Source: a virus. From it: a DNA stretch of 64,000 nucleotides. The position numbers and the translations under genes were made by a program. Positions 1 to 16,391 of this stretch are shown here, piece after piece (positions within the stretch are counted from its first letter, which is position 1; every line of letters starts with the position of its first letter). The stretch lies in IMG/VR virus record IMGVR_UViG_3300032893_000026; one strand, 5' to 3'. The notes under the pieces were generated by a model. That model was not told the origin of the DNA. It saw only the letters and a program-made list of their open reading frames with translations, and searched no databases.

Positions 1-428
1 TCCGGCTCCCGTAATCCGCCGTGCCCTGGCTGTTGACCTGCGCCGCGCTTCCGATGCAGTAGTCCTGGAATAGGGGCACGCCCGTGCAACTGTCGACCAC
101 CTGCACGAGCAGGTCCGAGGACTGTGTCGCGACGGGCGTCTGGTCGGGACTGGTGGCCGAAATGGTGTGGAAGTTGTACCCCCACAAGTACGCGCCGTCC
201 GCCGCCGCTATCTGGTAGAAGAACGTGTCGAAGGGGTTGACCGGCTCCCCCTGGTCATCCGGCACCACGTACCACCTCGCCCGGTGATTGACCGCTCTCC
301 GCAGGATGTCCATCTGGCCGAGGGCCTGGGGGAAGTATCTGCACGGGAGCAGTTGGAGCGCCGCGTTGTAGGTGAAGGCGTCGACAACCTGTTTGAGCAT
401 ATGTCTCTCCTCTCCTTGTCTCGACGCC

Positions 429-1310: not shown

Positions 1311-1348
1311 CTCCAGTCTCCTTTCCTCTTCTTTGCCTTGAGGTCAGG

Positions 1349-1798
1349 CTACTTGGAGATATCCGCCAGCCGGTACCGCTTCACCCCGCGAAAGGCGATC
1401 TGAATCGTGTTCGACTGCCCGCTGATATCCTGAATGTCGATTCCGATCCTGCCGCCCGCCGGGATGATGATCTCCGGGAATACGGGCCAGGGACTCGCCG
1501 CGTCTGCCACGATGTTGGCCGAGGCCACAAACCCGTTGCTCAAATAGTATCCCTGCGAGTCGCTGAAGCGGATCGAAAACGCGCCGGTAGCCAGTCCTAT
1601 CACAATGGCCCTCCAGGCGAAGTCCGCGTCGTTGGTAGTCGCGACGGTCTGGTCGCTGAGCTTCTGGTTGGCGGTGAGGCTCACGTCATACGGGTACGTG
1701 AAGTCGACATCCGTGTACCCTTCCGGGCTGGCGTCCGTCACCCCGTTGAACACGGGAGCGGACTGGGGATTGAAGATCGGGGAATTGAGAGCGCCCAC
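1349..1798 (-). CDS. Single jelly-roll-like capsid protein (149 aa)
   Basis: GTG start with GGAG RBS; alternating beta-strand pattern; clear paralogue of both halves of 429-1310. Confidence 0.6.
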   Translation of the reverse strand: MGALNSPIFNPQSAPVFNGVTDASPEGYTDVDFTYPYDVSLTANQKLSDQTVATTNDADFAWRAIVIGLATGAFSIRFSDSQGYYLSNGFVASANIVADAASPWPVFPEIIIPAGGRIGIDIQDISGQSNTIQIAFRGVKRYRLADISK

Positions 1799-1840
1799 TT
1801 TTGTATCTCCTTCAGTGCCCGGGATCCAATAACCCCAGGC

Positions 1841-1857
1841 GATTTAGACTCTAAATC
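1841..1857. promoter_or_regulatory. 17-bp palindromic operator-like site GATTTAGACTCTAAATC
   Basis: Perfect odd-length palindrome 43 bp upstream of the 1798 start; one of 15 copies in the genome. Confidence 0.8.
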
Positions 1858-2067
1858 CTGCCGCCGCCGGGTGCGCTTCCGGTGCCTCTCCCTATCTGCC
1901 ACTGGCCCTGCTTCCCGCCCCCCGGTCCTGAAGGAGCAACCAGGGGGCGGGAGAGAAGCCATCAGGTACGGGAGCGGGACCGGCCCGGCCTTCGCGGCAC
2001 TTCGGATGGCGTATCGCGCGATGCGTGCCGTCGGCCTGCCGACCAGCCTGCCGATCCACCCGGCTCT

Positions 2068-2670
2068 CTACTGCACGCCGCGTGCGTACAGCCCGTCGAG
2101 CAGGCACACCAGGGTGAGCCCGGTGCCTCCCGAGGCGGAGGCGGTGAGCGTGGCGGAGGTGCCGTTCAACTGGCCGTAGAACGTCATCTGGTTCTCGATG
2201 ACGATAGGGATCGCGAGTTTGTGCATGGACTCGCGCCCCGGCTTGCCGTTGCCGAGGATCGTGGTGGACGAGGTGGTGATCGCGGCGTAGATTCCGCCGC
2301 CCGCATTGTAGTACCAGAGCGGGCCACGCTGATACGGCTTCTGTCCGAGATAGAACTCGAAGCAGAACCCGTTCAGGATGGTGATCAGATCCGTCAGGTA
2401 GATGTCCTCCGAATAACGGATGCGGAAGCCGAAGATCGAGAAGGCCTCCGGGGCGGCCAGTTTCTGCGACTGGGTGAGGTTCGTCAGGGCCAGGGTCTTG
2501 CTGCTGGCCGGGCCCACGTTGGTGAACAGGGCCGTGGTCAACACCGTCACGGACGAGCCCGCGTTGAGGGCCACCGTGTCGTAGAGCGGGGTGTGCTGCA
2601 CGTCCATCCGATTGTTCACGTACACTTCGGAGTTGAACGCATCGACGATCATCTGTTGCTGCGGAGTCAT
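2068..2670 (-). CDS. Candidate major capsid protein, single jelly-roll-like (200 aa)
   Basis: RBS AGAGGA; beta-rich (LYDTV, TNL, PEAFSIFGFRI, IPIVIEN, LLDGLYAR); C-terminus parallels LDGVWRI of 429-1310; follows the Arg-rich core gene. Confidence 0.6.
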   Translation of the reverse strand: MTPQQQMIVDAFNSEVYVNNRMDVQHTPLYDTVALNAGSSVTVLTTALFTNVGPASSKTLALTNLTQSQKLAAPEAFSIFGFRIRYSEDIYLTDLITILNGFCFEFYLGQKPYQRGPLWYYNAGGGIYAAITTSSTTILGNGKPGRESMHKLAIPIVIENQMTFYGQLNGTSATLTASASGGTGLTLVCLLDGLYARGVQ

Positions 2671-2814
2671 TAATTTTTCCTCTGCTGAAGCTGGTTGACC
2701 TACGTTGAATTCGAGGGGCCCGGATCACTTACCCGGGCCCCAGGTCCTAGCAAGGTGTCCAGCACCGGCATCGAGTCCCGGGTCATCCCCGGAACCCCGC
2801 TAAGACGCCGGGCG

Positions 2815-3696
2815 CTAGAAAGCGGTGCCGAAGGCCCGCGCGAGTCCGTTCATGGTGACACGGGCGTTGGTCGGCGTGGCAGGAGCCGGAGCCGGGATGG
2901 CGGCGCGGATCGGGTTCTGCGGAACCACGAACTGGCCGGGCATCAGGTCGCCGAGCCCAATCGGCACTCCCCCGACGGTGAAGCCGGGCAGGAAGGCGTT
3001 CAGGGCCACGGAGGCCACCTGCATGAGGCCGCCGAACATGACGCCGTTGCCGAACTCGGGATCGAGCTTTCCGGCGCCCCAACCGGACGCCACCGCAGCC
3101 ACGGCGGAGATGATCACGCGTCCAAACGTGGTGGAGCCGAACGATCCGGTGATCGAGGTGGGGATGAGGGTGGGGATGAACTTCGTCGCCGCCACGCCCA
3201 CCAGACCACCGCCGATCAGCTTGAGGCTGTCCTTGGAGGTGAACGGGTGTCCGAGCAAGCCCGGATTCCGGCGGCGGTGACTCACGCGCCTCCGGGGGTT
3301 CTTCGCGTAATGACGGCGGCGGTTCCTCCGCTTGGGTGCCACGAACACCACGCGGGTGGCGTTGCGTCGGCGGCGGCGGGCGTAGCGGCGCGGGTTGCGG
3401 GCAACCCGGCGGCGGCGCACGTTCTTCACTTTGCGTCTGCGTCTTACCATGGTGCTTCTCCTTATGGGATTGAGGGACCCGAGTGTCACCACCAGGGCCG
3501 GGTTGGTTCTGCGGGTTCTCCTTCGGCGTGTTTTGCGCGACACCTGGACCTTTCTCCGCTTGGGATTCGTCTTGCGACGTCGGAGGGCGGCCTTCTGCCG
3601 GGCAGTTCCGAAGAACTTGATTTGTTTTGCGGTCATCCGCCTCCGCTTCCGGTGGCGGGAATTAGCCAGCCGCTTGACTTTGGTTGTGACTGCCAT
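2815..3696 (-). CDS. Arg-rich DNA-condensing core protein with C-terminal hydrophobic helices
   Basis: About 145 N-terminal residues dominated by R/K with repeated NP motifs; then GG/A-rich hydrophobic segments; AAGGAG RBS at 3696 and again at an internal ATG (3450). Confidence 0.7.
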   Translation of the reverse strand: MAVTTKVKRLANSRHRKRRRMTAKQIKFFGTARQKAALRRRKTNPKRRKVQVSRKTRRRRTRRTNPALVVTLGSLNPIRRSTMVRRRRKVKNVRRRRVARNPRRYARRRRRNATRVVFVAPKRRNRRRHYAKNPRRRVSHRRRNPGLLGHPFTSKDSLKLIGGGLVGVAATKFIPTLIPTSITGSFGSTTFGRVIISAVAAVASGWGAGKLDPEFGNGVMFGGLMQVASVALNAFLPGFTVGGVPIGLGDLMPGQFVVPQNPIRAAIPAPAPATPTNARVTMNGLARAFGTAF

Positions 3697-3729
3697 CGTG
3701 ACTCCTTTGACTCAGGCCTCCTTAGGCCA

Positions 3730-4068
3730 CTAGGCCGCCAGGGAACAGGGCCGTTGCAGGACCACGATATAAGTCCCGGCGGAACCGGCCACGTTGCCTT
3801 TGCTGAAAGTGACGATATTGGAGTTCGTCAGTACAGCCGCGATGGTGCATACGGCTGTTCCCACCACGTTGGGGGTGATCGTGACGAGCGGGAAGTTGAA
3901 GGCCAACTGCGCCGTCGAGAGCCCCCAGTTGTGGGTCATCACAAAGCTGGTGTCGGTGTCCGCTCCGATTGCCACAGTAGCCGTGATGGTATTGCACTTC
4001 TTTGCCTGTGCGGCAGTGGGAGGCGTAACACCGGCCACCGGGTAAGCGTAAGTGACTGTGACTGCCAT
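3730..4068 (-). CDS. Small beta-rich virion protein (112 aa), possible capsid decoration
   Basis: T/V/A-rich beta pattern with THNWG motif; RBS AAGGAG; lies in the capsid operon. Confidence 0.45.
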   Translation of the reverse strand: MAVTVTYAYPVAGVTPPTAAQAKKCNTITATVAIGADTDTSFVMTHNWGLSTAQLAFNFPLVTITPNVVGTAVCTIAAVLTNSNIVTFSKGNVAGSAGTYIVVLQRPCSLAA

Positions 4069-4097
4069 TTCTTTCTCCTTTCCTTAGCCCTGTGGGG

Positions 4098-4853
4098 CTA
4101 CTGTCTTGCTTCGACTACATCCGTTGCATTCTGGTCCTCCTCCCCCTTGCAAGGGAGGTGGGCCACGGATCTCATGCCGGGCGCGACGGCCCGGACCTTA
4201 AGGTGCACGATCTCCAACCGGGGATCGACCTTGATTACCGCGCCCCCGTCCTTGGCGCGGTAACAGAAACTGATGTCCTCTCCCAAGAAGCCCATCTCTG
4301 TCCTCCCGTCCACAATCGGGCGGAAGGGCCTGTCGCCAGCCATGCGTCCGATCCGGCTGCGCATGAGCACGGCGGGGAACCCGGTCCAGTCCACGGAGAT
4401 CGGGATCTGTCCCAGGAGAGCCGTCACCCGGATCGGCTTGCACCGGATGCCGTCTTCGGAGGAGCGGTATCCACAACTGGGAACGGCGTGGATATCGTAG
4501 CCATCCGGCTGGCAATAGCACCATGCCGACACCATGTCGAGCATGGGATCGTCGAACATGTCGTTGAGCAGGATCTTGAACTGGTCGAAGGTGAGCAGGT
4601 TGTCATCGTCCATCCACAGGATGTAGTCCGCAACGACTCCGCCTTGCCCCTTCATGACCCCGTTCCAGATCGTGGACCTCGTCGCGTACACGTTGGACGA
4701 GTACCCGAGATAGAACTGCACGTTATAGGCGTAATCCGGGTCCATGATCAGTTGGGCCAGGAAAGTTGTCCAGTTACTCACCCACACATTCGGGAATTGC
4801 TCTCCCGGGATGCAGATGGCGAGATTCAATGGCTTCCGCTCGTTCTCACTCAT
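4098..4853 (-). CDS. GT-A (family 2-like) glycosyltransferase
   Basis: Likely start MSENERKP; LAICIPG N-terminal strand, WMDDD DxD motif, TGFPAVL and GEDISFC motifs. Confidence 0.8.
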   Translation of the reverse strand: MSENERKPLNLAICIPGEQFPNVWVSNWTTFLAQLIMDPDYAYNVQFYLGYSSNVYATRSTIWNGVMKGQGGVVADYILWMDDDNLLTFDQFKILLNDMFDDPMLDMVSAWCYCQPDGYDIHAVPSCGYRSSEDGIRCKPIRVTALLGQIPISVDWTGFPAVLMRSRIGRMAGDRPFRPIVDGRTEMGFLGEDISFCYRAKDGGAVIKVDPRLEIVHLKVRAVAPGMRSVAHLPCKGEEDQNATDVVEARQ

Positions 4854-5143
4854 ACGTCTTCCGCTCCTTCGCTTTGACTTGCTCCGCTCGTTCCGCTCGA
4901 TCTCCCCTTGCCGTAGTACTTCCGGTAGAGCCACCACCCCGCCCCCACGGCAAGCAGGAGGAGGATGACGGATTGCGACTGCGATTGCGATTGCGACTGG
5001 TTGGACTGGATCGGGATGCAGTCCCAGAACCCCGTGCTGGCGTCGAGCACCGCGTAGTAGCCCGCGCCGCACCCCGGGTCGACACCGATGCTCTCGGCGG
5101 TGACGCCACCGGCAGGCTGAGATACCAAGTCAGAGAGGTCCAT
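4850..5143 (-). CDS. Small single-pass membrane virion protein
   Basis: Cys pair, QSQSQS linker, hydrophobic VILLLLAVGAGWWLY segment followed by RKYYGKGR. Confidence 0.6.
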   Translation of the reverse strand: MDLSDLVSQPAGGVTAESIGVDPGCGAGYYAVLDASTGFWDCIPIQSNQSQSQSQSQSVILLLLAVGAGWWLYRKYYGKGRSSGTSGASQSEGAEDV

Positions 5144-5145
5144 AT

Positions 5146-6390
5146 CTAGTTCTCGATCCCCGGACTCACGCCGACGAGCGGCTGCTTGATGAAGTACTGC
5201 CCGCCCGTGATGTAGAGCTTCTGGTTCTGCGGCTCGTATTCGAGGTAAGGCCTCTCGCCCGTGTCCTCGCCCAAGTCGTGCTGATAGATGATCTCCTCGA
5301 AGTCATCGAACTTCTTCTTCGTCTTGTAAGCCAGATTCCAGTACCGCTTGTTGTTGGTGGGCTTCGCGCCGGGCTCCGGCTCACTGAATACGCCGAGCAC
5401 CATTCGGTCCTTCAGCCATTTCTTCTCGTCCATCTTGAGCGTCGCCAGATCCACCGACTGGTCGCCGCCCTCGATGTACAGTTGCCTGCCGTCCTCGCTC
5501 GAAGCCAGGAACGGAGGGTTCTTCTCGAAGTCGATTCGGACGCGGATCCTGGTTGGGGTGTCGACGTAGATCTCCGTCAGGGTGCCGAGAGCGGCCAGAT
5601 GCTCATGCTCGTGGTACTCCTCCTCGATCACCACCTCTTCCGTCGACGGAGCGCCGTGGAAGGACTCGTACAGATCGGCGGCGGCACCGGCAGGATTACG
5701 TTTGGCTCTGGGCTTGTAGTCCGAATAGAGGATGTAGTTCTGGCGCCCGGCCCGGTCTTCCTTGTATACACAGGTGGCCGCGTACCCCTTGGCCCGAATG
5801 CTTTGGACAAGCTGGTCCGCATACTGATCGTCTTCCGGGGTAACAGCAGGGAGCTTGAGACTGTATCTGTAACTCCTCCCCCTGAAGGAGAAGGATTTGG
5901 GATTCTTCTTCCAGTCCCACTTACTCCGCTTGTGGCCCCTGGCATACTTCTTTTCCATGGTGGCGCACACCGCTCCCGGATCATATTCCTTCCCTACTCC
6001 CGCCTCGCACCGCTCAAACCACCCTGGCCCCGACCCTGGCCGCGCACCCGAATGGTGCCCCGGATTTGCTTCCCCAAACATGCCCTGATACGGATTGCCC
6101 TTCGACTTACCGAATCCGTGGAGCTTGGCCCTGGCCGCCGCGTAGGCCTCCTCGCGCGTCTTGCCCCCCACTCCCATGGGCTCCCCGGTCTTGTTGAACC
6201 ACTCCCACCTGCCGTCCGACTGGGTGAGCCGGATCTCTTCCGTGCTTCCGTCATCCGTGGTATAGGTGGCCTTGTCCGGGTCCTGCTCGTCTGGAGTCGG
6301 GCCATCCGGGTTAGGCCTTCGTCCCCCGTGTCTCTCCAGCACGTCGAAGTAGGAGGTATCGTGCTGGCCCATCTCAAGGCTCGATGCCAT
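5146..6390 (-). CDS. NP-motif modular virion/core protein (414 aa)
   Basis: Five NP motifs, mostly in a basic context, separate distinct segments; a globular-looking C-terminal domain of about 185 aa starts at KRNPAGAAADLYESFHG. Confidence 0.55.
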   Translation of the reverse strand: MASSLEMGQHDTSYFDVLERHGGRRPNPDGPTPDEQDPDKATYTTDDGSTEEIRLTQSDGRWEWFNKTGEPMGVGGKTREEAYAAARAKLHGFGKSKGNPYQGMFGEANPGHHSGARPGSGPGWFERCEAGVGKEYDPGAVCATMEKKYARGHKRSKWDWKKNPKSFSFRGRSYRYSLKLPAVTPEDDQYADQLVQSIRAKGYAATCVYKEDRAGRQNYILYSDYKPRAKRNPAGAAADLYESFHGAPSTEEVVIEEEYHEHEHLAALGTLTEIYVDTPTRIRVRIDFEKNPPFLASSEDGRQLYIEGGDQSVDLATLKMDEKKWLKDRMVLGVFSEPEPGAKPTNNKRYWNLAYKTKKKFDDFEEIIYQHDLGEDTGERPYLEYEPQNQKLYITGGQYFIKQPLVGVSPGIEN

Positions 6391-6391
6391 G

Positions 6392-7948
6392 TTAGTTGCC
6401 CTCCTCCTTCTCAATGCGTGCGATGGCATTCTTGACCTTCTTCGCCCCGCCCGAGTGTGCGTCGAATGCAATCACAATACCCCTGGACCGCAGCCGGGCG
6501 TCATCGAGACACATGCCACACTTCTTGTGCCCCGGAGATCCCACGCACTGGATATTCTTGTCGATGGCCTCATTCGGGCATGGCTGAATCCACACGCCCG
6601 TCTCCTCGTCCTTGTAGAGTCCCTTCTGCTTGAAGTGATCCACAACCATGGCCGTGCCCCACCCCCGGCTCATGGCCTCCTTGGCATCCGCCGCCGTCTC
6701 GCACGAGGCGAGTACGGAGATCTTCGATCCCCACGAGGAGCGGGAGGTGTCGCGCCATGCGTGGGTATAAGCCCACACTTTCTCGCGCCATCCCTGGCAT
6801 GCATCCGCCAGCATCCGCACCGGTCCGTTGCCTACCGCGTCGCCGACCACATGCAGCCGGAGCGGGAGCCACTTACCCTTGCGCTCGTTGATCTCGATCT
6901 GGGTCTTGATGGCCTCCGCCTCCGCCCTGGCGCAGTCCTCCGCGTCCGCGCCCGAGGAGTTGGCCGCCCGATTGAGCCGGAGCCGGGTGATGTTAGTCGG
7001 CCCATACTCCGCATAACACCCATACCCTAAGAAGGGGCAGGGTCGCGACGAGTTCCCCTGGTTGGGGCACGAGGCGTTGCTCACATAGGTGGCCGAGGCC
7101 ATCCCCACCTTCGCGTTTGCACTGGACTCCGCGAGGGTGGCGAGGGATCCGGGCGCGGCGGAGGGATTGGGCATCGTCCTCTCTCCTGCGGCGGAGATGT
7201 GGGTGACGAGGTCGAATTTAGAATCTAAATCGTGATCCGGGTTGGACACATAGTGCCTCACCAGATGGGCGGGCAGGGTGACCATGTTGGTGGAGAGGGT
7301 GTCGTAGATATCCAGACCGGACTTGACCACGGACTTGGCGACCCTGGCGGCGCGGCGGGCATGGTGTTGGACGGAGGAGTTGTGCTTCTTGCGGCGGGTG
7401 GTGGCCCACTCGTCCAGAAATCTCTTGGCATCGTCGACGGTGTCGAATCGCGAGTAAGGATCGGAGGAGACGCGATAGTCTCCGGTAGGCGTGCGGAAGA
7501 TCTTCTTCCCGCGATATTCCATCACCGGGCCCTCATACTCCTTGCCCGTGCCCGAGGACTTGACTTTCGTACCGGTGCTGGCCCTGGTTGTTTGGGAGGG
7601 GGCCTGGGAAGATGGACTTCGCCCAGGAGCGGTCTGGGCGGCGGAAGACCCGGCCCCCGCATACCTCGACGCCGGGCGGCCAGCCAGCCGGTCATCGAAG
7701 CCTTGATCGTAAGCGGCACGCAGACGCTGGAGGACGGGCCTGCCGTGCGAGGCATACCCGTGGTCGCAGGCCCACTGGTCAAACAGGCCGGTGTCGGGAG
7801 ACTCGAATCCGGCGAGATAGGCCGAGTGGAGGGACTGGGGGAGTGCGCTCTTCGACTTGGCGGCACACTTCCGCGCTTCCTTCTTCCTCCCGAACCCGAG
7901 GAAGTTGGCCTTGCGCCGGATTATGACTCGCCGCTTCATGCCACTCAC
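6392..7948 (-). CDS. Basic NP-motif protein fused to a gp88/DUF7227-like Cys-rich domain
   Basis: C-terminal half: SCP..CPF..GCYA, LRLHVVGD, WAYTHAW, LASCET, CP..C..C.MC pattern. Family recognised by eye only. Confidence 0.55.
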   Translation of the reverse strand: MSGMKRRVIIRRKANFLGFGRKKEARKCAAKSKSALPQSLHSAYLAGFESPDTGLFDQWACDHGYASHGRPVLQRLRAAYDQGFDDRLAGRPASRYAGAGSSAAQTAPGRSPSSQAPSQTTRASTGTKVKSSGTGKEYEGPVMEYRGKKIFRTPTGDYRVSSDPYSRFDTVDDAKRFLDEWATTRRKKHNSSVQHHARRAARVAKSVVKSGLDIYDTLSTNMVTLPAHLVRHYVSNPDHDLDSKFDLVTHISAAGERTMPNPSAAPGSLATLAESSANAKVGMASATYVSNASCPNQGNSSRPCPFLGYGCYAEYGPTNITRLRLNRAANSSGADAEDCARAEAEAIKTQIEINERKGKWLPLRLHVVGDAVGNGPVRMLADACQGWREKVWAYTHAWRDTSRSSWGSKISVLASCETAADAKEAMSRGWGTAMVVDHFKQKGLYKDEETGVWIQPCPNEAIDKNIQCVGSPGHKKCGMCLDDARLRSRGIVIAFDAHSGGAKKVKNAIARIEKEEGN

Positions 7949-7963
7949 TCCTGCTGATCCACT

Positions 7964-8001
7964 TGTTACTTACCTGTTACTTACCTGTTACTTACGTTAC
8001 C
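7964..8001. repeat. 11-bp tandem repeat (TGTTACTTACC) x3 plus partial
   Basis: Read directly; AT-rich, in the intergenic gap upstream of 6392-7948. Confidence 0.9.
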
Positions 8002-8561
8002 TATGAGCCGTACTGGCCGACATACGATGCCGCCCGTTTGTATCCCCTGTATTGGGAGCGCAGGGCCGCGCGTTTCTGGCGGTACTCCGATCCGGACGGC
8101 TCAAAGATGAACCAGAGCACGAGCCCTCCCGCGATCCATCCCCATAACGGGATCTGGAAGCTACCGATCCCGTAGTCGGTGGTGAGGGTGTTCTCGATGG
8201 ACGTGAGCGTCGAGGAGAAGTCTCCCAGCCCCTTCAGCCCTCCCGCACACCCGCACCCGGCGAGGCCAGCGCACCCGCACCCCAGGCCGCTAAGGCCCTG
8301 CCCGGATCCGGCCACCGGGGATATGACGGAGGTGGAGGCGAGAGCGTCGCGGATCGGGTTCTGCGGCACGGCGAACGCGGCGGGGAGCAGTTCCCCGATG
8401 TGGGGCACGTAGGCCGCGTGGCCGCGCATCAGTCCCTGGACGGAGGGCACAAGCGCCGTGCCCGGGTCGTTGGCGTCCGCAATGGGGTTCTGCGGCACAA
8501 CGAAGTTTCCCGGCAACAGGTCGCCGAATCCGGGGGCCGGGTGGAAGTTGAGATGAGGCAT
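8001..8561 (-). CDS. Membrane virion protein with two VPQNPI repeats and GLSGLG motifs
   Basis: GDLLPGNFVVPQNPI and GELLPAAFAVPQNPI; GLSGLGCGCAGLAGCG; TM LWGWIAGGLVLWFIF; basic tail. Confidence 0.65.
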   Translation of the reverse strand: MPHLNFHPAPGFGDLLPGNFVVPQNPIADANDPGTALVPSVQGLMRGHAAYVPHIGELLPAAFAVPQNPIRDALASTSVISPVAGSGQGLSGLGCGCAGLAGCGCAGGLKGLGDFSSTLTSIENTLTTDYGIGSFQIPLWGWIAGGLVLWFIFEPSGSEYRQKRAALRSQYRGYKRAASYVGQYGS

Positions 8562-8574
8562 CGTCTGATATCTC

Positions 8575-8865
8575 CTATTTCGCAACCATGACTACCGCGA
8601 CAATCCCGATAGCCAGGACTGCCAGAAAGATCGGGCCGTTATAGTCGCCCATGACCAGACTGCATGTGGCCGAGGGGCCGAGCACGGAAGAGAGCGTGGG
8701 ATAGTTGGTCGAGGCATAATCCGCGCACTGGGCCTTGTTGATGGCCGCCGTGGCCGAGTCCGCTTCCGACACCGGAGCGCAGGCCGTAATCAGGGATCCG
8801 GAGGCGGGGATCAGGGAACACCACCAGGGGACCGAGGCAGTGCCCGAAGCCGATACGTTCGCCAC
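8575..8865 (-). CDS. Small Cys-containing single-pass membrane protein
   Basis: Four Cys, C-terminal hydrophobic helix ending in K; tightly coupled in the operon. Confidence 0.6.
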   Translation of the reverse strand: MANVSASGTASVPWWCSLIPASGSLITACAPVSEADSATAAINKAQCADYASTNYPTLSSVLGPSATCSLVMGDYNGPIFLAVLAIGIVAVVMVAK

Positions 8866-8868
8866 CGG

Positions 8869-9408
8869 TTACCTCCTCCCCTTCGAGGCGCTCACGCTCG
8901 TGAGCAGGACGAAGAACGCGCCGAATCCCAGAAGCCACCACACCACGGTCGAGGACGTGGGGGTCTGGTTGCCGCCCGTGCCGGATCCCGTGCCTGCCCC
9001 CACGCCCGAGCCGGAGCCCTTGGTGCCGATCCCGGTGCCCTGCGTGGTGGAGCCCCCGGTTGGGAGGCCGGTGCCGCCCGGCGTACCGGTGACTTGGCCG
9101 CCTCCGCCGGTAGAGCCGGTAGAGCCGGTAGAGCCGGTAGCGCCGCCCGTCGAGGGAGTGGTGGAAGTGGTGGTGCAATGGCCTGCCGAGTCGCAGGTGA
9201 TGTCGGGGCCGCACGCGCCGCCCGCACAGATCGTTCCGGCTTGCCCGGACTGGATGCCGGGGTCGACCGAGTTATCGACCGTCGCGATGTAAGTGCAATC
9301 GCCTCCCTGCCCGTCCGTGGCCGGGTCGATGGTGGTGAAGGAATTGCCGTTCACCGTGCAGGAGTAGACATCCACGGTATTGCCGAGTCCACCTAAGTGG
9401 ATCATCAT
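8869..9408 (-). CDS. Cys-rich single-pass membrane protein with G/S/T linker
   Basis: HLGGLG near the N-terminus, six Cys, (GST)n linker, TM VVWWLLGFGAFFVLL, KGRR tail. Confidence 0.65.
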   Translation of the reverse strand: MMIHLGGLGNTVDVYSCTVNGNSFTTIDPATDGQGGDCTYIATVDNSVDPGIQSGQAGTICAGGACGPDITCDSAGHCTTTSTTPSTGGATGSTGSTGSTGGGGQVTGTPGGTGLPTGGSTTQGTGIGTKGSGSGVGAGTGSGTGGNQTPTSSTVVWWLLGFGAFFVLLTSVSASKGRR

Positions 9409-9680
9409 ACGGTCTTCCTCCTCTCCCTATCTCCCACTCTCCGCACGCCTATCTTCGGAGGCCTGGGCCCGGCGCTTTGCCGGATCATGTTGCGGAGCTT
9501 CCGCATGGGCTCGTTGTGCGGGCCCAGGTTGGCCCTGCACACCAGTTCCAGTTCCGGCCTCAACTCGTGATAGATGTCCTTCGCGAGAGGGCTGGCCTTC
9601 ATCTCGACGATACGGTCCAGGACCTTCATCGCCAGGATGTCCAGGCGGCCAGTCGGATCGGTGCTGGTGCGTTTCGCCAT
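9405..9680 (-). CDS. Small basic hypothetical protein
   Basis: Start MAKRTS just after the stop of the 55-aa ORF; stop overlaps the next start. Confidence 0.45.
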   Translation of the reverse strand: MAKRTSTDPTGRLDILAMKVLDRIVEMKASPLAKDIYHELRPELELVCRANLGPHNEPMRKLRNMIRQSAGPRPPKIGVRRVGDRERRKTV

Positions 9681-9682
9681 GC

Positions 9683-9850
9683 CTACTTCTTCTTGGGCCT
9701 GCTGAACAGCACGGCAAGCCCCGCCCCCACCCAGAACCACCACGGCGTCTTGGCGCACTCGGACAATTGATCCGAGGTGGAGCCGGTCTGTCCCTGCGTC
9801 TCAGAGAGGTAACAGCTTTCCAGGGGCCGCCATCCTAACATCTGTGCCAT
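9683..9850 (-). CDS. 55-aa membrane protein missed by the ORF track
   Basis: Translated by hand: AGGAGG RBS, MAQMLGWRPLESCYLSETQGQTGSTSDQLSECAKTPWWFWVGAGLAVLFSRPKKK*. Confidence 0.7.
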   Translation of the reverse strand: MAQMLGWRPLESCYLSETQGQTGSTSDQLSECAKTPWWFWVGAGLAVLFSRPKKK

Positions 9851-9871
9851 CGCATCTCCTCCTTAGGTCAC

Positions 9872-10216
9872 TCACTCATTTACTGTCAGAGGCGGCACGG
9901 CACTGGACCAGGGCGGCACTGGCCCAAGCACCGGCACGCTGTAAGTCGAGATAGACGGAACCAACACGCCAGCCGGTCCCTGCACCGCTCCACCCTGCAC
10001 CGCCACGGGGATCACCGACGCGGCCACGGTGGGCGAGGTCACGGTGGGCTGCACCGTCCCTCCCACCACGCTACCGGCGGGGGCCACCTGGGCCGTGGGA
10101 GAAGTGGCCGTGGCATTGGGACTGGAGCTTGTGGCAGTCGTGGCGGTGCTCGACGATTTCTGGTTGTACAGGTAGTAGAGGAGCGCCGCTCCCCCGAGAA
10201 TCCATGCCCAGTTCAC
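9872..10216 (-). CDS. N-terminally anchored S/T/P/V-rich membrane protein
   Basis: WAWILGGAALLYYLY TM followed by low-complexity sequence; RBS present. Confidence 0.55.
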   Translation of the reverse strand: MNWAWILGGAALLYYLYNQKSSSTATTATSSSPNATATSPTAQVAPAGSVVGGTVQPTVTSPTVAASVIPVAVQGGAVQGPAGVLVPSISTYSVPVLGPVPPWSSAVPPLTVNE

Positions 10217-10240
10217 CGTTATTCTCCTTTCGCGTGGGCG

Positions 10241-10960
10241 CTAGGTGGCCCACCCTCCGTACACTCCGACCGGCCTGCGCCTGCGCCACCCGAGCCCGGC
10301 AAGCCCGCTCGATTGCAGGAACGGGAGCACGGCGGCCCACCAAGTCTGGAAAGTCACGGGCGCGTGGGCATCGCTGGCGTTGGGGAACATGGACTCCGGC
10401 GCGGGCGCGGTGTAGCCAGGGGTCACCTGCATCAGGAAGTAGTTCCAGGTGTCCGGAGACTGGGAGCCGGAGATGTAAGTGGAACTGACTCCCGAGGAGT
10501 TGATGAAGGCCACCACCTTCGCCTGCAACTGATCGGCCTTCGACTGCACGGCAATGGTGGTGGTGCTGGTGCCCTGCGCCGGGGTGGTGGTGGCGCCGGT
10601 TGTGCCGGTGGCGACGGTGGTGCCGGTGGAGGAGGCGAGGGGCTGCATCAAAGTGGGGTACTTGACCAGAGCGGCGTATATGCACGCGGCGGTAGTGGGG
10701 TCGATGTTACCGGACGCCTGGGAGACGAGGCTCTGGTATAGCTGCATGCCCGTCATTCCCTTGTCCGCCGCCGAGGTGTTGTAGGCCGCCGCGACGGTTT
10801 TCAGGTCCGCATCCGATGCCCCGCAGGTGGCAGTGCCCCCCGTGGTGCCCGTGCCGGTGCCGGTGCCGGTGCTGGTGGTGGAAGTCCCGAGCAGTCCCGT
10901 CTGTTTCATCAGAAAGTACGCGGCCACCCCGAGAATGAGGACTAACACTCCGTTCTTCAC
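10241..10960 (-). CDS. Membrane virion protein (N-terminal TM, T/G linkers, GLAGLG near the C-terminus)
   Basis: GTG start overlaps the upstream TGA; VLVLILGVAAYFLM TM; GLAGLG followed by WRRRRP. Confidence 0.6.
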   Translation of the reverse strand: MKNGVLVLILGVAAYFLMKQTGLLGTSTTSTGTGTGTGTTGGTATCGASDADLKTVAAAYNTSAADKGMTGMQLYQSLVSQASGNIDPTTAACIYAALVKYPTLMQPLASSTGTTVATGTTGATTTPAQGTSTTTIAVQSKADQLQAKVVAFINSSGVSSTYISGSQSPDTWNYFLMQVTPGYTAPAPESMFPNASDAHAPVTFQTWWAAVLPFLQSSGLAGLGWRRRRPVGVYGGWAT

Positions 10961-11259
10961 TTTCTCGCTCCTTTCTTGGGCTTGAGCAGGAGATACAGAC
11001 CCACCAGCCCGGCGGCGGCCATCAATGCATGGTTCTGCACCCAGAGATTGAAGTCGCAGAGCCACCCGGTAGCCGTATCAGCCACGGTGCCGGTCTTCGG
11101 CGGGGTGATACTCGGATAGACGGCAGTCAGTGTAATAGGGCCCATATCAGTGCCCGTAGCCGCCGCTTCGGACGGCGAGGAAGCCGGTGCCGAGTTATCA
11201 CCCGCGCCGAGGTATTGCGCGGCCAGCACGCTCTGCACATTCGGATCGGATACAGCCAT
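10957..11259 (-). CDS. Single-pass membrane protein
   Basis: C-terminal TM ALMAAAGLVGLYLLL followed by KPKKGARK. Confidence 0.6.
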   Translation of the reverse strand: MAVSDPNVQSVLAAQYLGAGDNSAPASSPSEAAATGTDMGPITLTAVYPSITPPKTGTVADTATGWLCDFNLWVQNHALMAAAGLVGLYLLLKPKKGARK

Positions 11260-11262
11260 AAC

Positions 11263-11667
11263 TCATCTCCTCTTATTCGCGACTAAGACGGCCACGATTC
11301 CAGCCGCCAGCAATAACGAGCCCCATCCCAACCCGCTCATCCCCGATCCGGACCCCGGGCTTGCGGCCTGGGATTGAGACTGGGACTGCGCCTGGGCTTG
11401 AGAGGACAAGGTCTGCGCCGTGCTCGACACGCCCGACCCCATGGGGACTGATCCCGGCTGATCGGACTGATCGGACTGATCGGACTGATCATATTGGTCG
11501 ACGAGCCCGGCGATGGTCACCGGCTTGGGGTGGTTGTGGAAATACCACGGCCCCCTGCCCTCCACCATGGTGGTGGGGTTCGATCCAAGCCTGTTCAGCA
11601 TCCGGCTGATCTCCATGTCCCACGTCGTGGAGTGCAGTTTGAAGGGAGAGATAGCTACCTGTGGCAT
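11263..11667 (-). CDS. Single-pass membrane protein with GMSGLG before the TM
   Basis: Likely start MPQVAISP; (DQS)n and QSQ linkers; TM; NKRR tail. Confidence 0.6.
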   Translation of the reverse strand: MPQVAISPFKLHSTTWDMEISRMLNRLGSNPTTMVEGRGPWYFHNHPKPVTIAGLVDQYDQSDQSDQSDQPGSVPMGSGVSSTAQTLSSQAQAQSQSQSQAASPGSGSGMSGLGWGSLLLAAGIVAVLVANKRR

Positions 11668-12581
11668 TACTTCTTTCCTCCCATGACCAGGAACAGGCCT
11701 ACCGCCGCCGCGCCGATGACTAACAGGCTGGTGGTCTGGCTCATGCCGAACAGGCTGAATCCCGCGCCGGATCCTGTTCCACTGGTGGAGCCGGTGCCGG
11801 AGGTCTGCTGGGTGGCCGTCTGCACAATCCCCCCGCCGTTGGACGTCGAGGTCCCTCCGCCCGTGCTGGTAGTAACAGGTATGCCAGTGCCCGTGCCCGC
11901 GCCTGCACCCGTGCCTGTGCCTGTGCTGGCGCCTGCGCCGGTCACAACCGTCCCCGTGGATGAGGGGAGGGTCTGCTGCGCCTGCTCCTGCGCCACCTGC
12001 TGCGCCGCCGCTTGGCTCTCGGCCACGTCTGCCTGCCAGTTGGCATCGAGTTGCGCGTTGAAACTCGTGTACCCCAATGCCTCGATCTTCGCCGCCCAGA
12101 CATCCGCCGGAGGCGCTACGAAGTGATGCACGGCGCGGGTCGCATCGCGGGCCACGAGATCTTGCAGGTAGGGGCTCCAGGACCGTTCCAGCGTGCCGTC
12201 CGGATTCACTATCATCAACGTTCCGGAACTCTCCACCGTGTAGGGCATCGAGTAACTCGGGTTGTACACGGCGTTGATCATCTGTGTGTACATGCCGGAA
12301 TAGTCGGGCGCGTAAACTGTCTGTCCACCCGCCGTCTGCCATTCCTGCCCGATGCTGCCGTAGAAGGCCGCGATGTTGGCGGCCAACGAGCCCTGGTCTT
12401 GTGGGACGAAGTTTCCCGCCCCGGCCACCACCCCCATCCCTCCGAATCCGTTGAGCCCCATTCCCGACATTCCCGAACCGGGGACGTTGATCTGTTTCAT
12501 CCCGAGCCGGGAGAACGGACTCCTGTCCATGCTATGTGGGTGCACTTGAAACTGGAACGGCCTTACCCGGATGTTAGCCAT
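11667..12581 (-). CDS. Membrane virion protein (304 aa) with GMSGMG leader motif
   Basis: Basic leader, GMSGMGLNGFGGMG, globular segment, T/G linker, C-terminal TM ending GGKK. Confidence 0.65.
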   Translation of the reverse strand: MANIRVRPFQFQVHPHSMDRSPFSRLGMKQINVPGSGMSGMGLNGFGGMGVVAGAGNFVPQDQGSLAANIAAFYGSIGQEWQTAGGQTVYAPDYSGMYTQMINAVYNPSYSMPYTVESSGTLMIVNPDGTLERSWSPYLQDLVARDATRAVHHFVAPPADVWAAKIEALGYTSFNAQLDANWQADVAESQAAAQQVAQEQAQQTLPSSTGTVVTGAGASTGTGTGAGAGTGTGIPVTTSTGGGTSTSNGGGIVQTATQQTSGTGSTSGTGSGAGFSLFGMSQTTSLLVIGAAAVGLFLVMGGKK

Positions 12582-12582
12582 G

Positions 12583-13434
12583 TTAGTTGTCCCCCATAAC
12601 CAGGACCAGGGCGATGGCCCCGAGTCCCAGGTAGGCCAGAGATTTAGAGTCTAAAGAAGTAGTGCCGCCGCTGGAGGCCGAGGTGGAAGTGGAGGTAGAG
12701 GCCGAAGTGGAGGTCGAGGTCCCGGAGTCGAGGGAGATATCGGCGGCCACCGTCTGGTCGTTGGCTACGATGTCGCGGTAGCCGTTGAACCAGTTCCAGC
12801 ACTGCCCGGGCTGAGGCTCACCGGGATAGGAGAGCAGGGGGGAGGTGGTGGTCTGAAGCCACTTGCAGGCCCCGGCCTGACGGTCCGCGATGCAGTTCTG
12901 TCCCGCCGTGCCGAGCCCCGCCTGACTGCACCTCTGCACCAGCCCCTGCCATGCCGCGTCGATGACTCCGAGCACGGCATTCTGCGCCGCCTGGGTGCGG
13001 GGAGCGGGGAGTGCGAAGTAGGCCTGGACGGCCTGCTTGATCGTGTCCTCGGCTTGGTTGGCCCATTCGGAAGTGACCACGCAAGTCTCGCCGCATCCCC
13101 TGCCGAGCAGGACGGTGATGGCAAGCATGGCCCCCGCGATGATGGGGCCGATGAAGGGCACGATGCCGGAGGCCGCGATGGCCGCGCCAAGTCCCGTGGT
13201 GGCTCCGGCGGCGGTGGCGGAGGCGGCCAGGGCACCGGCCACGGCGCCTGCGGAAGAGAGGGTAGCGCCCGCGATGGCGGAGGCCTGCTTCTCGGCGGGG
13301 CTCATATCACCCAATCCGGCAAGCCCGAGCCCGAGGCAAGGAAGACAACCCACCCCACTGCCGGTGCGGTAGCGCACGGGGCTACGCATGACTGCATATC
13401 CGTGGGCCGCGCGGTATGGGGTGAGTTGGCGCAT
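12583..13434 (-). CDS. Membrane virion protein (283 aa) with GLAGLG leader motif and Cys-rich domain
   Basis: Basic leader ending GLAGLG-D, Ala/Gly-rich hydrophobic hairpin, six further Cys, S/T linker, C-terminal TM. Confidence 0.65.
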   Translation of the reverse strand: MRQLTPYRAAHGYAVMRSPVRYRTGSGVGCLPCLGLGLAGLGDMSPAEKQASAIAGATLSSAGAVAGALAASATAAGATTGLGAAIAASGIVPFIGPIIAGAMLAITVLLGRGCGETCVVTSEWANQAEDTIKQAVQAYFALPAPRTQAAQNAVLGVIDAAWQGLVQRCSQAGLGTAGQNCIADRQAGACKWLQTTTSPLLSYPGEPQPGQCWNWFNGYRDIVANDQTVAADISLDSGTSTSTSASTSTSTSASSGGTTSLDSKSLAYLGLGAIALVLVMGDN

Positions 13435-13437
13435 GAG

Positions 13438-13740
13438 TTAGGAGATCTCCGTGGGCTTGGTGGCCGAGGCCGGAGCCGGAGCCGGAGCCGCAGAGCCGTA
13501 GCCGTGAGACTCCATCCAGGCCTCGATCAACTGGTCCGTCTCCTCGGCGGATTGGACCGCACCGTCCTGGATGGTCTGGATCTGGACGGTGATGTCGGAG
13601 GAGGAGGACTCGAAGAGAGCCTTGATCTTGAGCGCCGCCTCGATGCCGGTGGGGACGAGGGTGGCGAGGAGCGAGACACCCTGGAACACGAGAGCGATGA
13701 CGTTGGCCGCCGTACCGGTCGGAACAATCGGAGTCGCCAT
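13438..13740 (-). CDS. Small membrane-associated protein
   Basis: Hydrophobic N-terminal helix; directly coupled to 13741-14250. Confidence 0.5.
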   Translation of the reverse strand: MATPIVPTGTAANVIALVFQGVSLLATLVPTGIEAALKIKALFESSSSDITVQIQTIQDGAVQSAEETDQLIEAWMESHGYGSAAPAPAPASATKPTEIS

Positions 13741-14250
13741 TTACTTTGCTCCCTGGGCAGTGGTTACCGCCACGGTGATGGACTGCACGATGGTCTGGAT
13801 CGAGCGCACCAGCGAGATCACGAGCGGAGGAGTGGCCGTGGTCTGCGCGAGGTAGGGCTTGACCGAGTCGGGCAGGCTCATGCGGTTGAGGTCTGCCTGG
13901 ATCTGGATGACGAAGGTGGGCCAGTCGATGGACTTCGCGGTCACGGCTTTGAGCGTGATCTCGGACGCCTCGACGGCCAGGGCCACGTTGCGGCTCCAGT
14001 CGAGGATCGCCTTGGCCTCCGCCTGGGAGATGAGATTGGCGGCCTGCACAGAGATGACACCCTGCGCCACGGCTTCGTTTCCCGTGCTGATCGCAGCCAC
14101 GGTCTGGTTGATGGTGAGGAGCGCCTTGGTCTGCGCGTCCGTCGAGTTGATGGTGGCCGAATGCATACAGCTAATGGATGTGAGTACGCCCGCCAGGAGC
14201 AGGACCACTGCCGCGCGGGCGAGTTTCGCTTGTGTGGTCATAGAAGTCAT
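13741..14250 (-). CDS. Signal-peptide or lipoprotein-like helical protein
   Basis: KLARAAVVLLLAGVLTSISC, a weak lipobox-like Cys; amphipathic helical body. Confidence 0.5.
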   Translation of the reverse strand: MTSMTTQAKLARAAVVLLLAGVLTSISCMHSATINSTDAQTKALLTINQTVAAISTGNEAVAQGVISVQAANLISQAEAKAILDWSRNVALAVEASEITLKAVTAKSIDWPTFVIQIQADLNRMSLPDSVKPYLAQTTATPPLVISLVRSIQTIVQSITVAVTTAQGAK

Positions 14251-15026
14251 ACTCGTTGGTACTGGAACCTCTCCTCCTGGGTCATGCCCGGCTCCCCGGC
14301 TGCTTTGAGCAACTTGTTGGTGAGCGGAGGGAGGAAGTGGGAGATGATGGCAGTCCGCAGGGAGCCGTGCTTGGCCTCTGAATCGACCTGATGTAACGCG
14401 CCCATGTAGTGGCCGAGGGCATAGTGGTTGTAGTAGGGCTTGGCCGATTGCTTGCGGTCATACTCCGTCAACACATGAAGCAGTTTGGCGTGCGTGCGCT
14501 CATCGATTGGATTGGAGCGCACCCACTTCTGCAAAGCCCGCGCGATGCGCTTCGTCTTCGACGGGTTTTGTCTTCGCGCCCTCCGCTTCGAGGAGGACTT
14601 GGACTTGGTGCGCCGCTTGGTGGCCGAGCGCCTGCCGCGTGCCGTCTTGCGTCTGGTTTTGGCTTTGGGCTTGGTCCCGGCGTATACGACACGCTTGCCG
14701 CCCGGCCCCTTGCGCGTCAGGTAGCGCGGGCCCATCTGATCGGTGCGGGCGCCGTACTCGTCGCCTGCCCGCTCCTCGTCGTAGTCTGCGCTCCGGCGCA
14801 GGGGGTGGAACTTTCCACCGGCCCAGAACCCGGCCTGCACGTTCCGGCGCACCGGATTGTGCTTACTGCGGTTGGCCTTGATCTCCACCCGCATGTGCAG
14901 CTTGTTGGCGAGTTTCTGCGCGTAGGTGCGGGCCGCCGAGTCCGACTTGAGATAACGTCCGTCCGTGGCGTGGGGACTGCCGCCCGCGACTCCCACCGGG
15001 TATGCGTTGAATGTGTACCAGCCCAT
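14247..15026 (-). CDS. Basic NP-motif core protein (259 aa)
   Basis: KHNP, RRQNP and RSNP separate segments; central K/R-rich tract. Confidence 0.6.
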   Translation of the reverse strand: MGWYTFNAYPVGVAGGSPHATDGRYLKSDSAARTYAQKLANKLHMRVEIKANRSKHNPVRRNVQAGFWAGGKFHPLRRSADYDEERAGDEYGARTDQMGPRYLTRKGPGGKRVVYAGTKPKAKTRRKTARGRRSATKRRTKSKSSSKRRARRQNPSKTKRIARALQKWVRSNPIDERTHAKLLHVLTEYDRKQSAKPYYNHYALGHYMGALHQVDSEAKHGSLRTAIISHFLPPLTNKLLKAAGEPGMTQEERFQYQRV

Positions 15027-15036
15027 GACGCTCTCC

Positions 15037-15705
15037 TTACTTCTTGCTCATCATGAAAATGAATAACAGCAGCCCGCCGCCGATCAACAGGACGGTGGTT
15101 CCACTGAGCACGGTGGATCCGATCTTGACCGTCCCCGTCTGGGAGGTGATCGGGTAGCCTGTGGTCTGCCGCGAGGTAGCTCCCGTGGACGTCTGCACCG
15201 TGCCGGGCTGGATGGCCTCCAGCTTGGCGACATCGAGGATGCCCTGCGTGGCGGCGGTGATGACGGGGGTCCAGTTGGTGGAAGTCGTACCGGAAGGAGT
15301 GGAGGCCGGAGTGCCGGTGCTCGATCCGCCCCCGGTATAAGTCACCGTGCCGGTTGGCATGCCGGGATAGTTGAGGACGGTAGTCGAGGTTCCGCCGCCC
15401 GATCCTGTCGATCCGCTGCCGGAGCAGGGGTCCGGGTCCATGCATGCGCCGCTCTCGTCCACCATCGAGCAATCGCATCCCAGTCCCGAGATTCCGAGAC
15501 GGGACTTGATTCTCTGGATCGCGGCGCGGCGGCGGGCCAGCACCTGCGGGCGCACCACGCGCCTGACGGGCGCTGCACGCACTCCCAGGCCTCCCAGGCC
15601 TCCCAAGTCTCCGAGCCCGGCCATGGACTTCGACGCGAACAGATCCTGGACCTGGGAAGGCGAGAGCATCGAGTCCGGGACCACGGTATAGGACGGAAGC
15701 ATCAT
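15037..15705 (-). CDS. Membrane virion protein with repeated GLG motifs and a Cys-rich mini-domain
   Basis: ATGA overlap with the upstream stop; MAGLGDLGGLGGLG and ISGLG-CDC; G/S/T linker; TM; MSKK tail. Confidence 0.65.
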   Translation of the reverse strand: MMLPSYTVVPDSMLSPSQVQDLFASKSMAGLGDLGGLGGLGVRAAPVRRVVRPQVLARRRAAIQRIKSRLGISGLGCDCSMVDESGACMDPDPCSGSGSTGSGGGTSTTVLNYPGMPTGTVTYTGGGSSTGTPASTPSGTTSTNWTPVITAATQGILDVAKLEAIQPGTVQTSTGATSRQTTGYPITSQTGTVKIGSTVLSGTTVLLIGGGLLLFIFMMSKK

Positions 15706-16391
15706 ACGGGCAATCCTTTCGCTAACAGGTATGCCGCGCCCCCCACTGCCGCAACCAGGGCCAGCACGTTGATTGAAGACTCCGTGGACACGGGGACATC
15801 CACGGACCATTCCCTGCGCCGGTAGACTCCCTCCGTCACCTCCCACCCGACGTAGGGCCCATGCGAGAAGTCGACGGGCGTGCGCTGGCCGCCGGGATAG
15901 GCGACGCAGTAAACGTGGGACCAGTTGCGGGGAAGCTGGGGATCGGCGGCCACGGTGCAGAAGTTGATCTTGATGCCCGAAGCACGGAGGAGCGCCGCGC
16001 CGTACATCACGTAGTCATCGCAGTCTCCCTGGGCCCGCGAGGCCACGCTCATGTCGCGCGGGCGGATCAGCACCTCCGCCACGTCCTCGTTGCTGCCAAC
16101 CAGGGAGGCGACCGGCCTGCCGGTGTCCTCGTCGCGTACGAAGTGCATCCGGCTGCGCACCCAGTTGAACACTCCGGCGACGGGATCCGCGCCCATGTTC
16201 GCGTCGCGGAGGAAGGCCGCGTCCATCCGTATCTCCGGGCTTGCCGTATCGGTGCGGACGTAGGAGGCCATCAACGCGAGGACCTGGGCGCACTGCGTGT
16301 CGGGATCGTCGCTCACCACGTCGATGCGGTAATGCAGTTGTTGCCCGAAGCCGGGATGGTAGAGAGTGCCGGTGAGGCCGCTCAATTCCAT
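15702..16391 (-). CDS. Transglutaminase-like cysteine protease with C-terminal membrane anchor
   Basis: GDCDD (Cys), SHVY (His), PVD (Asp) triad pattern; upstream FNWVR..F..D; C-terminal TM; first gene of the virion operon. Confidence 0.8.
   Translation of the reverse strand: MELSGLTGTLYHPGFGQQLHYRIDVVSDDPDTQCAQVLALMASYVRTDTASPEIRMDAAFLRDANMGADPVAGVFNWVRSRMHFVRDEDTGRPVASLVGSNEDVAEVLIRPRDMSVASRAQGDCDDYVMYGAALLRASGIKINFCTVAADPQLPRNWSHVYCVAYPGGQRTPVDFSHGPYVGWEVTEGVYRRREWSVDVPVSTESSINVLALVAAVGGAAYLLAKGLPV

Follow-up and report, generated by a model that had tools for sequence, protein, structure and literature searches.

The adenovirus core precursors pVII, pX/mu and others are cut by adenain at (M/I/L)XGX-G, and the internal proteins of phage T4 carry an N-terminal capsid-targeting sequence that is removed by gp21 at the motif L/I-x-E. 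Scission at Asn-Pro bonds has been described for the asparagine peptide lyases FlhB/YscU (N|PTH) and reovirus mu1 (N42|P43), and in both mu1 and picobirnavirus the released peptide remains in the particle (PMC3207474). LapG is a proven endoprotease (PMC3032545, PMC4359373); in substrates of its family, a hydrophobic element docked on the β-sheet of the protease precedes an Asx-Pro (“DP”) turn, after which comes the scissile motif, and acidic residues flank the catalytic cysteine (calcium site, D-C-E in DvhG) (PMC13090378). For the polyvalent proteins of phages and conjugative elements, processing has, as in the present case, only been predicted (Iyer et al. 2017, PMC5512222). Here, we analyzed a 64,000-nucleotide stretch of viral DNA (IMG/VR record IMGVR_UViG_3300032893_000026; hereafter, the window), in which the dipeptide Asn-Pro (NP) recurs in four proteins encoded on the minus strand, namely P0001 (2815-3696), P0002 (5146-6390), P0003 (6392-7948) and P0004 (14247-15026). 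Judging from its conservation in related sequences, selection appears to maintain NP as a punctuation signal in proteins that probably lie inside the particle in this virus group, and enzymatic processing at or beside the NP seam is the explanation that we favor, at somewhat less than an even chance.

Enrichment and conservation of the Asn-Pro seams

Expected NP counts and p values were obtained from composition-preserving shuffles. P0001 contained seven NP against 1.02 expected (p = 5e-5) and P0002 six against 0.84 (p = 1.5e-4). Three were counted in P0004, where 0.46 were expected (p = 0.007, lost after correction for 71 genes), and the two found in P0003 were not significant (0.83 expected, p = 0.2). 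When the four open reading frames (ORFs) were pooled, 18 NP in 1480 positions were recorded vs. 40 in 14450 in the other 67 (odds ratio 4.4, p = 2.9e-6). The proposed enrichment over the rest of the proteome was obtained for the pool; tested singly against shuffles, NP was enriched in P0001 and P0002, marginally so in P0004 and not significantly so in P0003. Every NP tetrapeptide listed in the original prediction was present on the minus strand, but SLNP (residue 76) and PQNP (residue 261) of P0001 and EKNP (residue 291) of P0002 had been missed. Lysine or arginine occupied position -1 or -2 at 13 of the 18 sites. The term “basic polyproteins” suits P0001, P0003 and P0004 (net charges of +67, +24 and +38, respectively) and not P0002, which is net acidic (-8) and basic only in its linkers.

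Both Asn codons (AAT, AAC) and all four Pro codons (CCN) are in use at the seams and AAYCC occurs with the same frequency on the two strands, so that a DNA-level motif as the origin of NP was ruled out; since the seam codons vary, selection acts on the protein and not on the DNA. As a separate observation, the rarer AAT was favored at the seam Asn relative to other Asn of the same genes, both in the window (10/18 vs. 6/37, p = 0.004) and in relatives (27/51 vs. 30/90, p = 0.03), for which a bias in codon pairs or a pause in translation where modules end could be responsible.

P0001 is a protamine-like membrane protein of 293 residues with a hydrophobic C-terminal half, and more than 500 metagenome proteins match it. 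In its 110 near-full-length homologues, NP was observed 809 times against 130 expected (6.2-fold), while the remaining X-Pro pairs examined (DP, SP, TP, GP, RP, KP and QP) were depleted. Five seams are conserved across the family, all given here on the minus strand: N12 (3658-3663), N65-P66 (3499-3504), N76-P77 (3466-3471), N144-P145 (3262-3267) and N261-P262 (2911-2916). The additional NPs at residues 44, 101 and 133 are variable. N76-P77 and N144-P145 were each present in 110/110 sequences. N65 was found in 109/110, with the following Pro changed to Ser in four; N261 was kept in 109/110 and P262 in 110/110, and N12 and P13 in 106/110 and 105/110, respectively, the window protein alone having Ser at residue 13. 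These near-fixed seams lie within drifting, arginine-rich, low-complexity sequence, and the same layout was recovered at 31–38% identity in proteins binned with metagenome-assembled genomes (MAGs) of Acidobacteriota, Actinomycetota, Methylophilaceae and Saccharibacteria. Nearly all of the protamine-like proteins begin with a 12-residue leader that ends in NP.

Residues 66-76 of P0001 (3469-3501, minus strand) form an 11-residue hydrophobic strand, P-A-L-V-V-T-L-G-x-x-N, with NP on each side, in which L72 and G73 are at least 87% conserved. A second NP context, G-D-L-x-P-G-x-F-x-V-P-Q-N|P, is present in two copies in the protein encoded at 8001-8585 (minus strand; NP at 8484-8489 and 8355-8360); it is found as well at the end of the P0001 membrane domain (residues 247-262), and four relatives carry it in their orthologues.

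The 414-residue modular protein P0002 opens with a 27-residue leader and carries seams at N27 (6307-6312), N99 (6091-6096), N109 (6061-6066), N163 (5899-5904) and N232-P233 (5692-5697), the last of them directly before a conserved C-terminal domain (C-domain; residues 233-414, 5149-5694; all on the minus strand), which is modeled with a pLDDT > 90 and usually ends in G-I/V-x-Asn. Homology of P0002 is limited to its approximately 185 C-terminal residues. An exhaustive search returned 1,494 cluster representatives of the C-domain family, and the domain was C-terminal in all 150 representatives listed, in proteins of 129 to 1,493 residues. At the position of N232, about 179 of 180 relatives have Asn, followed by Pro in about 169, Ser in eight, and Thr and Gly in one each. 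Neither in these 180 sequences nor in the 110 P0001 relatives was the seam Asn ever replaced by Asp, Ser or Thr, and the degenerate seams of the window read N-S, a pattern which suggests that Asn matters more than Pro. The claim that NP positions are conserved was thereby borne out at the five P0001 seams (at least 105/110) and at the seam of the C-domain.

In the AlphaFold model of P0002 (mean pLDDT 77), NP27, NP99, NP109 and NP163 fall in stretches with a pLDDT < 50 between confident small domains, while N232-P233 caps the first helix of the C-domain (residues 234-245), in line with the expected placement of NP at domain boundaries. The sixth NP of the protein, NP291 (5515-5520, minus strand), lies in a loop inside the C-domain and is not a seam; it served as an internal control, and in relatives its place is freely taken by EP, DP, NA, DT and others. 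No convincing match to the C-domain was obtained in Pfam or PHROGs by sequence, in the Protein Data Bank (PDB) or BFVD by Foldseek, or in ESM Atlas by shape and by features, and in a wide search for its fold with VIA the best hit (Z 5.7) fell on another module. A zincin metalloprotease was considered for the C-domain, given an H-E-H-E-H arrangement resembling HExxH, and was dropped, as the histidines are only 42–87% conserved.

In the variable N-terminal regions of the 180 relatives, NP reached 7.15 times its expected frequency and Pro followed 40% of all Asn. The segments between N|P sites have a median length of 67 residues, and each protein holds three to eight such modules, which belong to recurrent families arranged in varying order. 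In line with module shuffling at NP boundaries, a 31-residue two-Cys module, a module of about 70 residues and HNH/EndoVII-like pieces recur, flanked by NP, next to different neighbors. The residue preceding the seam Asn is R, K, W, Y, L or Q. Matches for the small variable modules comprised HNH/EndoVII-like, DUF7227, DUF6582 and weak ribosome modulation factor (RMF)-like domains; the weak match to RMF (PF04957) concerns a module of the polyprotein relative P0050 (L003:10001-11071), which, if the match is real, would be a candidate effector acting on host translation. The C-terminal residue of the P0002 relatives is Asn in 83% and Asp in 10%, so the last module ends as the others would if they were cut after Asn. 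A leader of up to 25 residues ending in NP was found in 44/170 relatives. The mirror feature of the C-terminal Asn, a Met-Pro start of stand-alone proteins, was only mildly present (27/170), with no trend in neighboring genes.

P0003 (518 residues) comprises an N-terminal part that corresponds to “module 2” of the polyprotein family, a degenerate seam at N190-S191 (7376-7381), “module 5” up to N236-P237 (7238-7243), a further 25 residues up to N261-P262 (7163-7168) and a DUF7227 domain (6422-7138), all on the minus strand, and its C-terminal residue is Asn. Because P0003 holds two family modules in addition to DUF7227, P0003 and P0002 jointly match what in relatives, P0007 among them, is one polyprotein. 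The inclusion of P0003 among the four proteins therefore stands only through this module homology, and P0004 joins them without a homologue: no detectable one was found for this 259-residue protein, whose NPs lie at residues 57, 154 and 172 (14853-14858, 14562-14567 and 14508-14513, minus strand). P0004 has one 32-residue motif in common with the tail of the protein encoded at 8986-9723 of the relative L005. The shared sequence, G-x-F-H-P-[LI]-R-x-S-x-D-Y-D, spans residues 61-91 of P0004, where it directly follows an NP, and residues 199-230 of the L005 protein; both carriers are basic and otherwise unrelated.

A candidate protease and its genomic setting

The gene at 15702-16391 (minus strand) is the first of a conserved operon and encodes a candidate cysteine protease of transglutaminase fold (LapG/BTLCP-like) with a C-terminal membrane anchor. 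Foldseek matched its predicted structure to 3isr (E = 3e-4), to the LapG complex 4u65 (E = 5e-4), to TglA and to PNGase, and Pfam Transglut_core scored 17.5 bits, under its 23-bit cut-off. Both the C124, H159, D174 triad and the D123-C124-D125 stretch are invariant in 8/8 relatives. No signal peptide was found in the product, which has a C-terminal transmembrane helix instead. The gene opens the conserved operon in the relatives L001, L004 and L005, and it was located at every searchable position, that is, in these three and in four distant genomes. On these sequence and model grounds, assignment of the product as a cysteine protease is credible. A second candidate was not recovered: no peptidase family was recognized at E ≤ 0.001 among the 71 proteins of the genome.

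A complex of this protease with residues 52-160 of P0001 was predicted with a score of 0.76, while the best of three controls scored 0.00. A score of 0.76 was reached by 58/80 solved complexes and by 2/110 mismatched pairs, counts that apply here only approximately, since custom alignments were supplied for the prediction. The runs agreed in at least 58% of contacts, and the pLDDT of the partner was at least 40, its fold being uncertain. The predicted interface comprises residues 64-78 of P0001, i.e., the strand between N65-P66 and N76-P77, and residues 17-28 and 102-117 of the protease, including the invariant E106 and L108; in the model, the P0001 strand lies antiparallel to strand 19-26 of the protease and is packed against residues 102-117. 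The model thus supports binding of an NP-flanked strand and not catalysis. The suggestion that the product of 15702-16391 is the enzyme acting on these proteins is accordingly met by a credible protease with a predicted docking on such a strand, with the choice between cut and docked left undecided.

The window covers a circular genome of 57,841 bp and runs on beyond its end, positions 1-6159 being repeated exactly at 57842-64000. Its guanine-plus-cytosine content is approximately 62%, and the minus strand carries nearly all genes. Pfam recognized replication genes (a split family A polymerase, UDG, a helicase and a resolvase) and no terminase, portal, HK97-type capsid or peptidase family. The block at 2815-16391 encodes many small proteins with a single hydrophobic helix and fits a putative inner-membrane virion module. 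The virus is uncultured and appears to be of a non-tailed, membrane type, and its NP-bearing proteins are likely to lie in the particle interior. No close relatives were found among cultured phages in INPHARED by megablast or tblastn, or in IMG/VR with the capsid-like protein as query. Some relatives lie on very long contigs, L003 (329,723 bp) and L009 (358,486 bp, from a Bryobacteraceae MAG), which suggests integrated copies; the window genome itself encodes a serine recombinase (Resolvase).

Two further genes lie among those described above. A glycosyltransferase-like gene (4098-5072, minus strand; phrog_1574, weak GT2 match) separates the polyprotein gene from the protamine-like gene, and its domain occurs in relatives either standalone or fused within a 508-residue protein. 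Between the protease gene and P0004, the ORF at 15037-15700 (minus strand) encodes a Gly/Ser/Thr-rich product with G-L-G repeats, an L-S-G-L-G-C motif and a hydrophobic C-terminal helix; the motif, as L-x-G-L-G-C, is also present in the 8001-8585 protein and its orthologues.

Proposed cleavage at the seams and other explanations

On the favored reading, NP would part three kinds of unit: short N-terminal leaders; the arginine-rich, DNA-condensing peptides of P0001 together with its membrane anchor; and cargo modules, small and independent, ahead of the conserved C-domain, in a polyprotein that is split in this virus into 6392-7948 and 5146-6390. Maturation by a protease acting at the seam or beside it would free modules that start with Pro, end in Asn and keep a basic C-terminal tail, and the best candidate for the enzyme would be the membrane-anchored, LapG-like cysteine protease of the virus. 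P0001 would be divided into a 12-residue leader, a 53-residue basic peptide, the hydrophobic 11-mer, an arginine peptide of approximately 68 residues, a 117-residue membrane domain ending in F-x-V-P-Q-N and a 32-residue tail. Packaged modular cargo would fit the variable small modules seen in the sequences. In a wider proposal, which we put forward more tentatively and with the balance leaning against it, NP would encode maturation throughout a very large clade of uncultured membrane viruses, in which the LapG-like protease, anchored in the virion, or Asn-driven self-scission would yield protamine-like peptides and Arg-tailed effector modules that enter the host on the DNA.

Several points weigh against cleavage. 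Taken by themselves, P0003 and P0004 have weak statistics. Most endopeptidases cleave X-Pro bonds poorly, and enzymes of the papain clan generally recognize P2; the residues before the seam Asn are variable here (R, K, W, Y, L, Q). The LapG motif [T/A/P]AAG is absent from P0001–P0004 and from the 8001-8585 protein. In the complex model, the catalytic residues are not among the confident contacts, and the partnership may be structural and not that of an enzyme with its substrate; conservation of the protease interface, at 0.47 vs. 0.61 for the rest of the protein, was dropped as added support for the model. In addition, the virus is uncultured. The conserved module boundaries and the modular cargo agree with the original view of packaged polyproteins cut or docked at NP, while cutting, the bond concerned, packaging and action of the modules on infection are points that we infer.

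The strongest competitor, although we consider it doubtful, is an uncut Asx-Pro hinge or docking frame, in which NP closes a basic arm that binds DNA or membrane and brackets short strands or helices for insertion into partner proteins, such as strand 66-76 on the transglutaminase-fold protein or the F-x-V-P-Q-N-P strands of the membrane proteins; the proteins would in that case be strung like beads, holding cargo, DNA and inner membrane together. NP also suits a helix N-cap or an Asx-Pro turn, and in the model N232-P233 caps helix 234-245 directly. The succession of NP and K/R-K/R in P0001 resembles SPKK-type minor-groove turns, the second NP context lies in conserved hydrophobic strands, and what the complex model predicts is strand docking, with the catalytic residues unlisted. 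Moreover, Asx-Pro in LapG substrates is a turn and not the scissile bond (PMC13090378). However, caps and turns normally accept Ser, Thr or Asp, whereas the seam Asn is never so replaced in either set of relatives and the Pro occasionally is, and an NP of the P0002 family that truly belongs to a structural loop, NP291, varies freely. The conserved C-terminal Asn and the short leaders that end in NP are not accounted for by a hinge between domains either.

An enzyme-free cut by asparagine cyclization, the chemistry of the asparagine peptide lyases, slow or triggered in the assembled particle, is improbable. It would account for an invariant Asn followed by a residue without strict identity and for modules and proteins that end in Asn, and among the known viral and bacterial examples of scission after Asn, two involve an Asn-Pro bond (PMC3207474). 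Known lyases, however, need a dedicated fold with a single site, whereas here each protein has many seams in variable contexts predicted to be disordered. Uncatalyzed Asn-Pro scission, moreover, takes on the order of weeks. The FlhB/EscU-type self-cleavage invoked in the original prediction is a poor model, as neither an NPTH motif nor an FlhB-type Pfam match was found in the four proteins. Less probable still is that NP is a by-product of cassette exchange, a short shared recombination junction with no role in the protein. Modules do recur, flanked by NP, beside different neighbors, and VENN and similar Asn-containing junctions mark the swappable toxin tips of CdiA; but five bases are too short for homologous exchange, the seam codons vary, the five seams of the P0001 family are invariant although P0001 is not shuffled, and leaders and C-terminal Asn are again left unexplained. 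Finally, the composition of Asn- and Pro-rich or low-complexity proteins might produce NP by chance, an account that finds an echo in the unenriched P0003 and the marginal P0004. It is practically negligible in view of the composition-preserving shuffles, which refuted it for P0001 and P0002, and of a 6–7-fold enrichment with fixed positions in hundreds of relatives.

Comparison with known systems

In its sequence architecture, the NP system appears closest to the polyvalent proteins, which are likewise strings of unrelated domains with variable architecture, predicted to travel with DNA and to be released by proteolysis (PMC5512222). Their defining 2–15 distinct domains per polypeptide compare with the three to eight NP-bounded modules found here, and nuclease and Zn-ribbon-type modules occur in both. 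By contrast, the modules of the present proteins are much smaller and are joined at a strict Asn-Pro seam, of which the passage on processing in PMC5512222 makes no mention; a single conserved domain without a fold match follows the variable part on its C-terminal side, and the virus has no recognizable tailed-phage genes. The zincin-like MPTase hub, ArdC, the MTase-helicase dyad, LPD, assemblin and LonC were not found by Pfam, which on P0001–P0004 and ten long relatives returned only weak HNH/EndoVII, DUF6582 and DUF7227 matches.

The candidate protease shares with LapG/BTLCP enzymes the fold, the C-H-D triad and the acidic residues beside the Cys, and its modeled partner would follow the same substrate grammar of a hydrophobic docking element and an Asx-Pro turn. 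It differs in having no signal peptide and in being anchored C-terminally; its candidate substrates lack [T/A/P]AAG, and Asx-Pro is not the bond that LapG cuts. This precedent therefore fits both cutting and docking. With the asparagine peptide lyases, the system would share a scissile Asn-Pro in which Asn is essential, though in the lyases it is a single site in a dedicated fold and here each protein has many, placed in variable linkers. Neither the Pfam scans nor the structure searches returned reovirus mu1. As in the T4 internal proteins, short N-terminal leaders on probably packaged proteins end at a fixed motif, but motif and protease are different, and the signal is here repeated internally. 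Adenoviruses, whose virion is of the jelly-roll lineage, offer arginine-rich, DNA-condensing precursors trimmed by a virion cysteine protease to small basic peptides, and the layout of P0001 suggests the same, although the seams are N-P, processing is predicted and the candidate protease is transglutaminase/LapG-like and not adenain, whose Peptidase C5 fold has no family match in the genome at E ≤ 0.001.

Literature searches brought up no account of NP seams in phage proteins. The new points in this system are the size of both families, the unequal conservation of Asn and Pro, the C-terminal Asn, the N-terminal leaders and the predicted docking of an NP-flanked strand on a LapG-like protease. 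Should the seams remain uncut, the strict requirement for Asn would still indicate an unrecognized short linear recognition motif. Should they be cut, a two-residue rule would predict from sequence the mature products of well over 1,000 uncharacterized viral polyproteins, the swappable modules of 30–130 residues would form a catalogue of candidate injected effectors, and both a new protease specificity and a new packaging route for swappable cargo would be at hand. Asn-Pro scission is otherwise known only from single-site, self-cleaving folds (PMC3207474); in this group of prokaryotic viruses, it would serve a core-protein maturation in the style of the adenoviruses, carried out by another enzyme and at another site.

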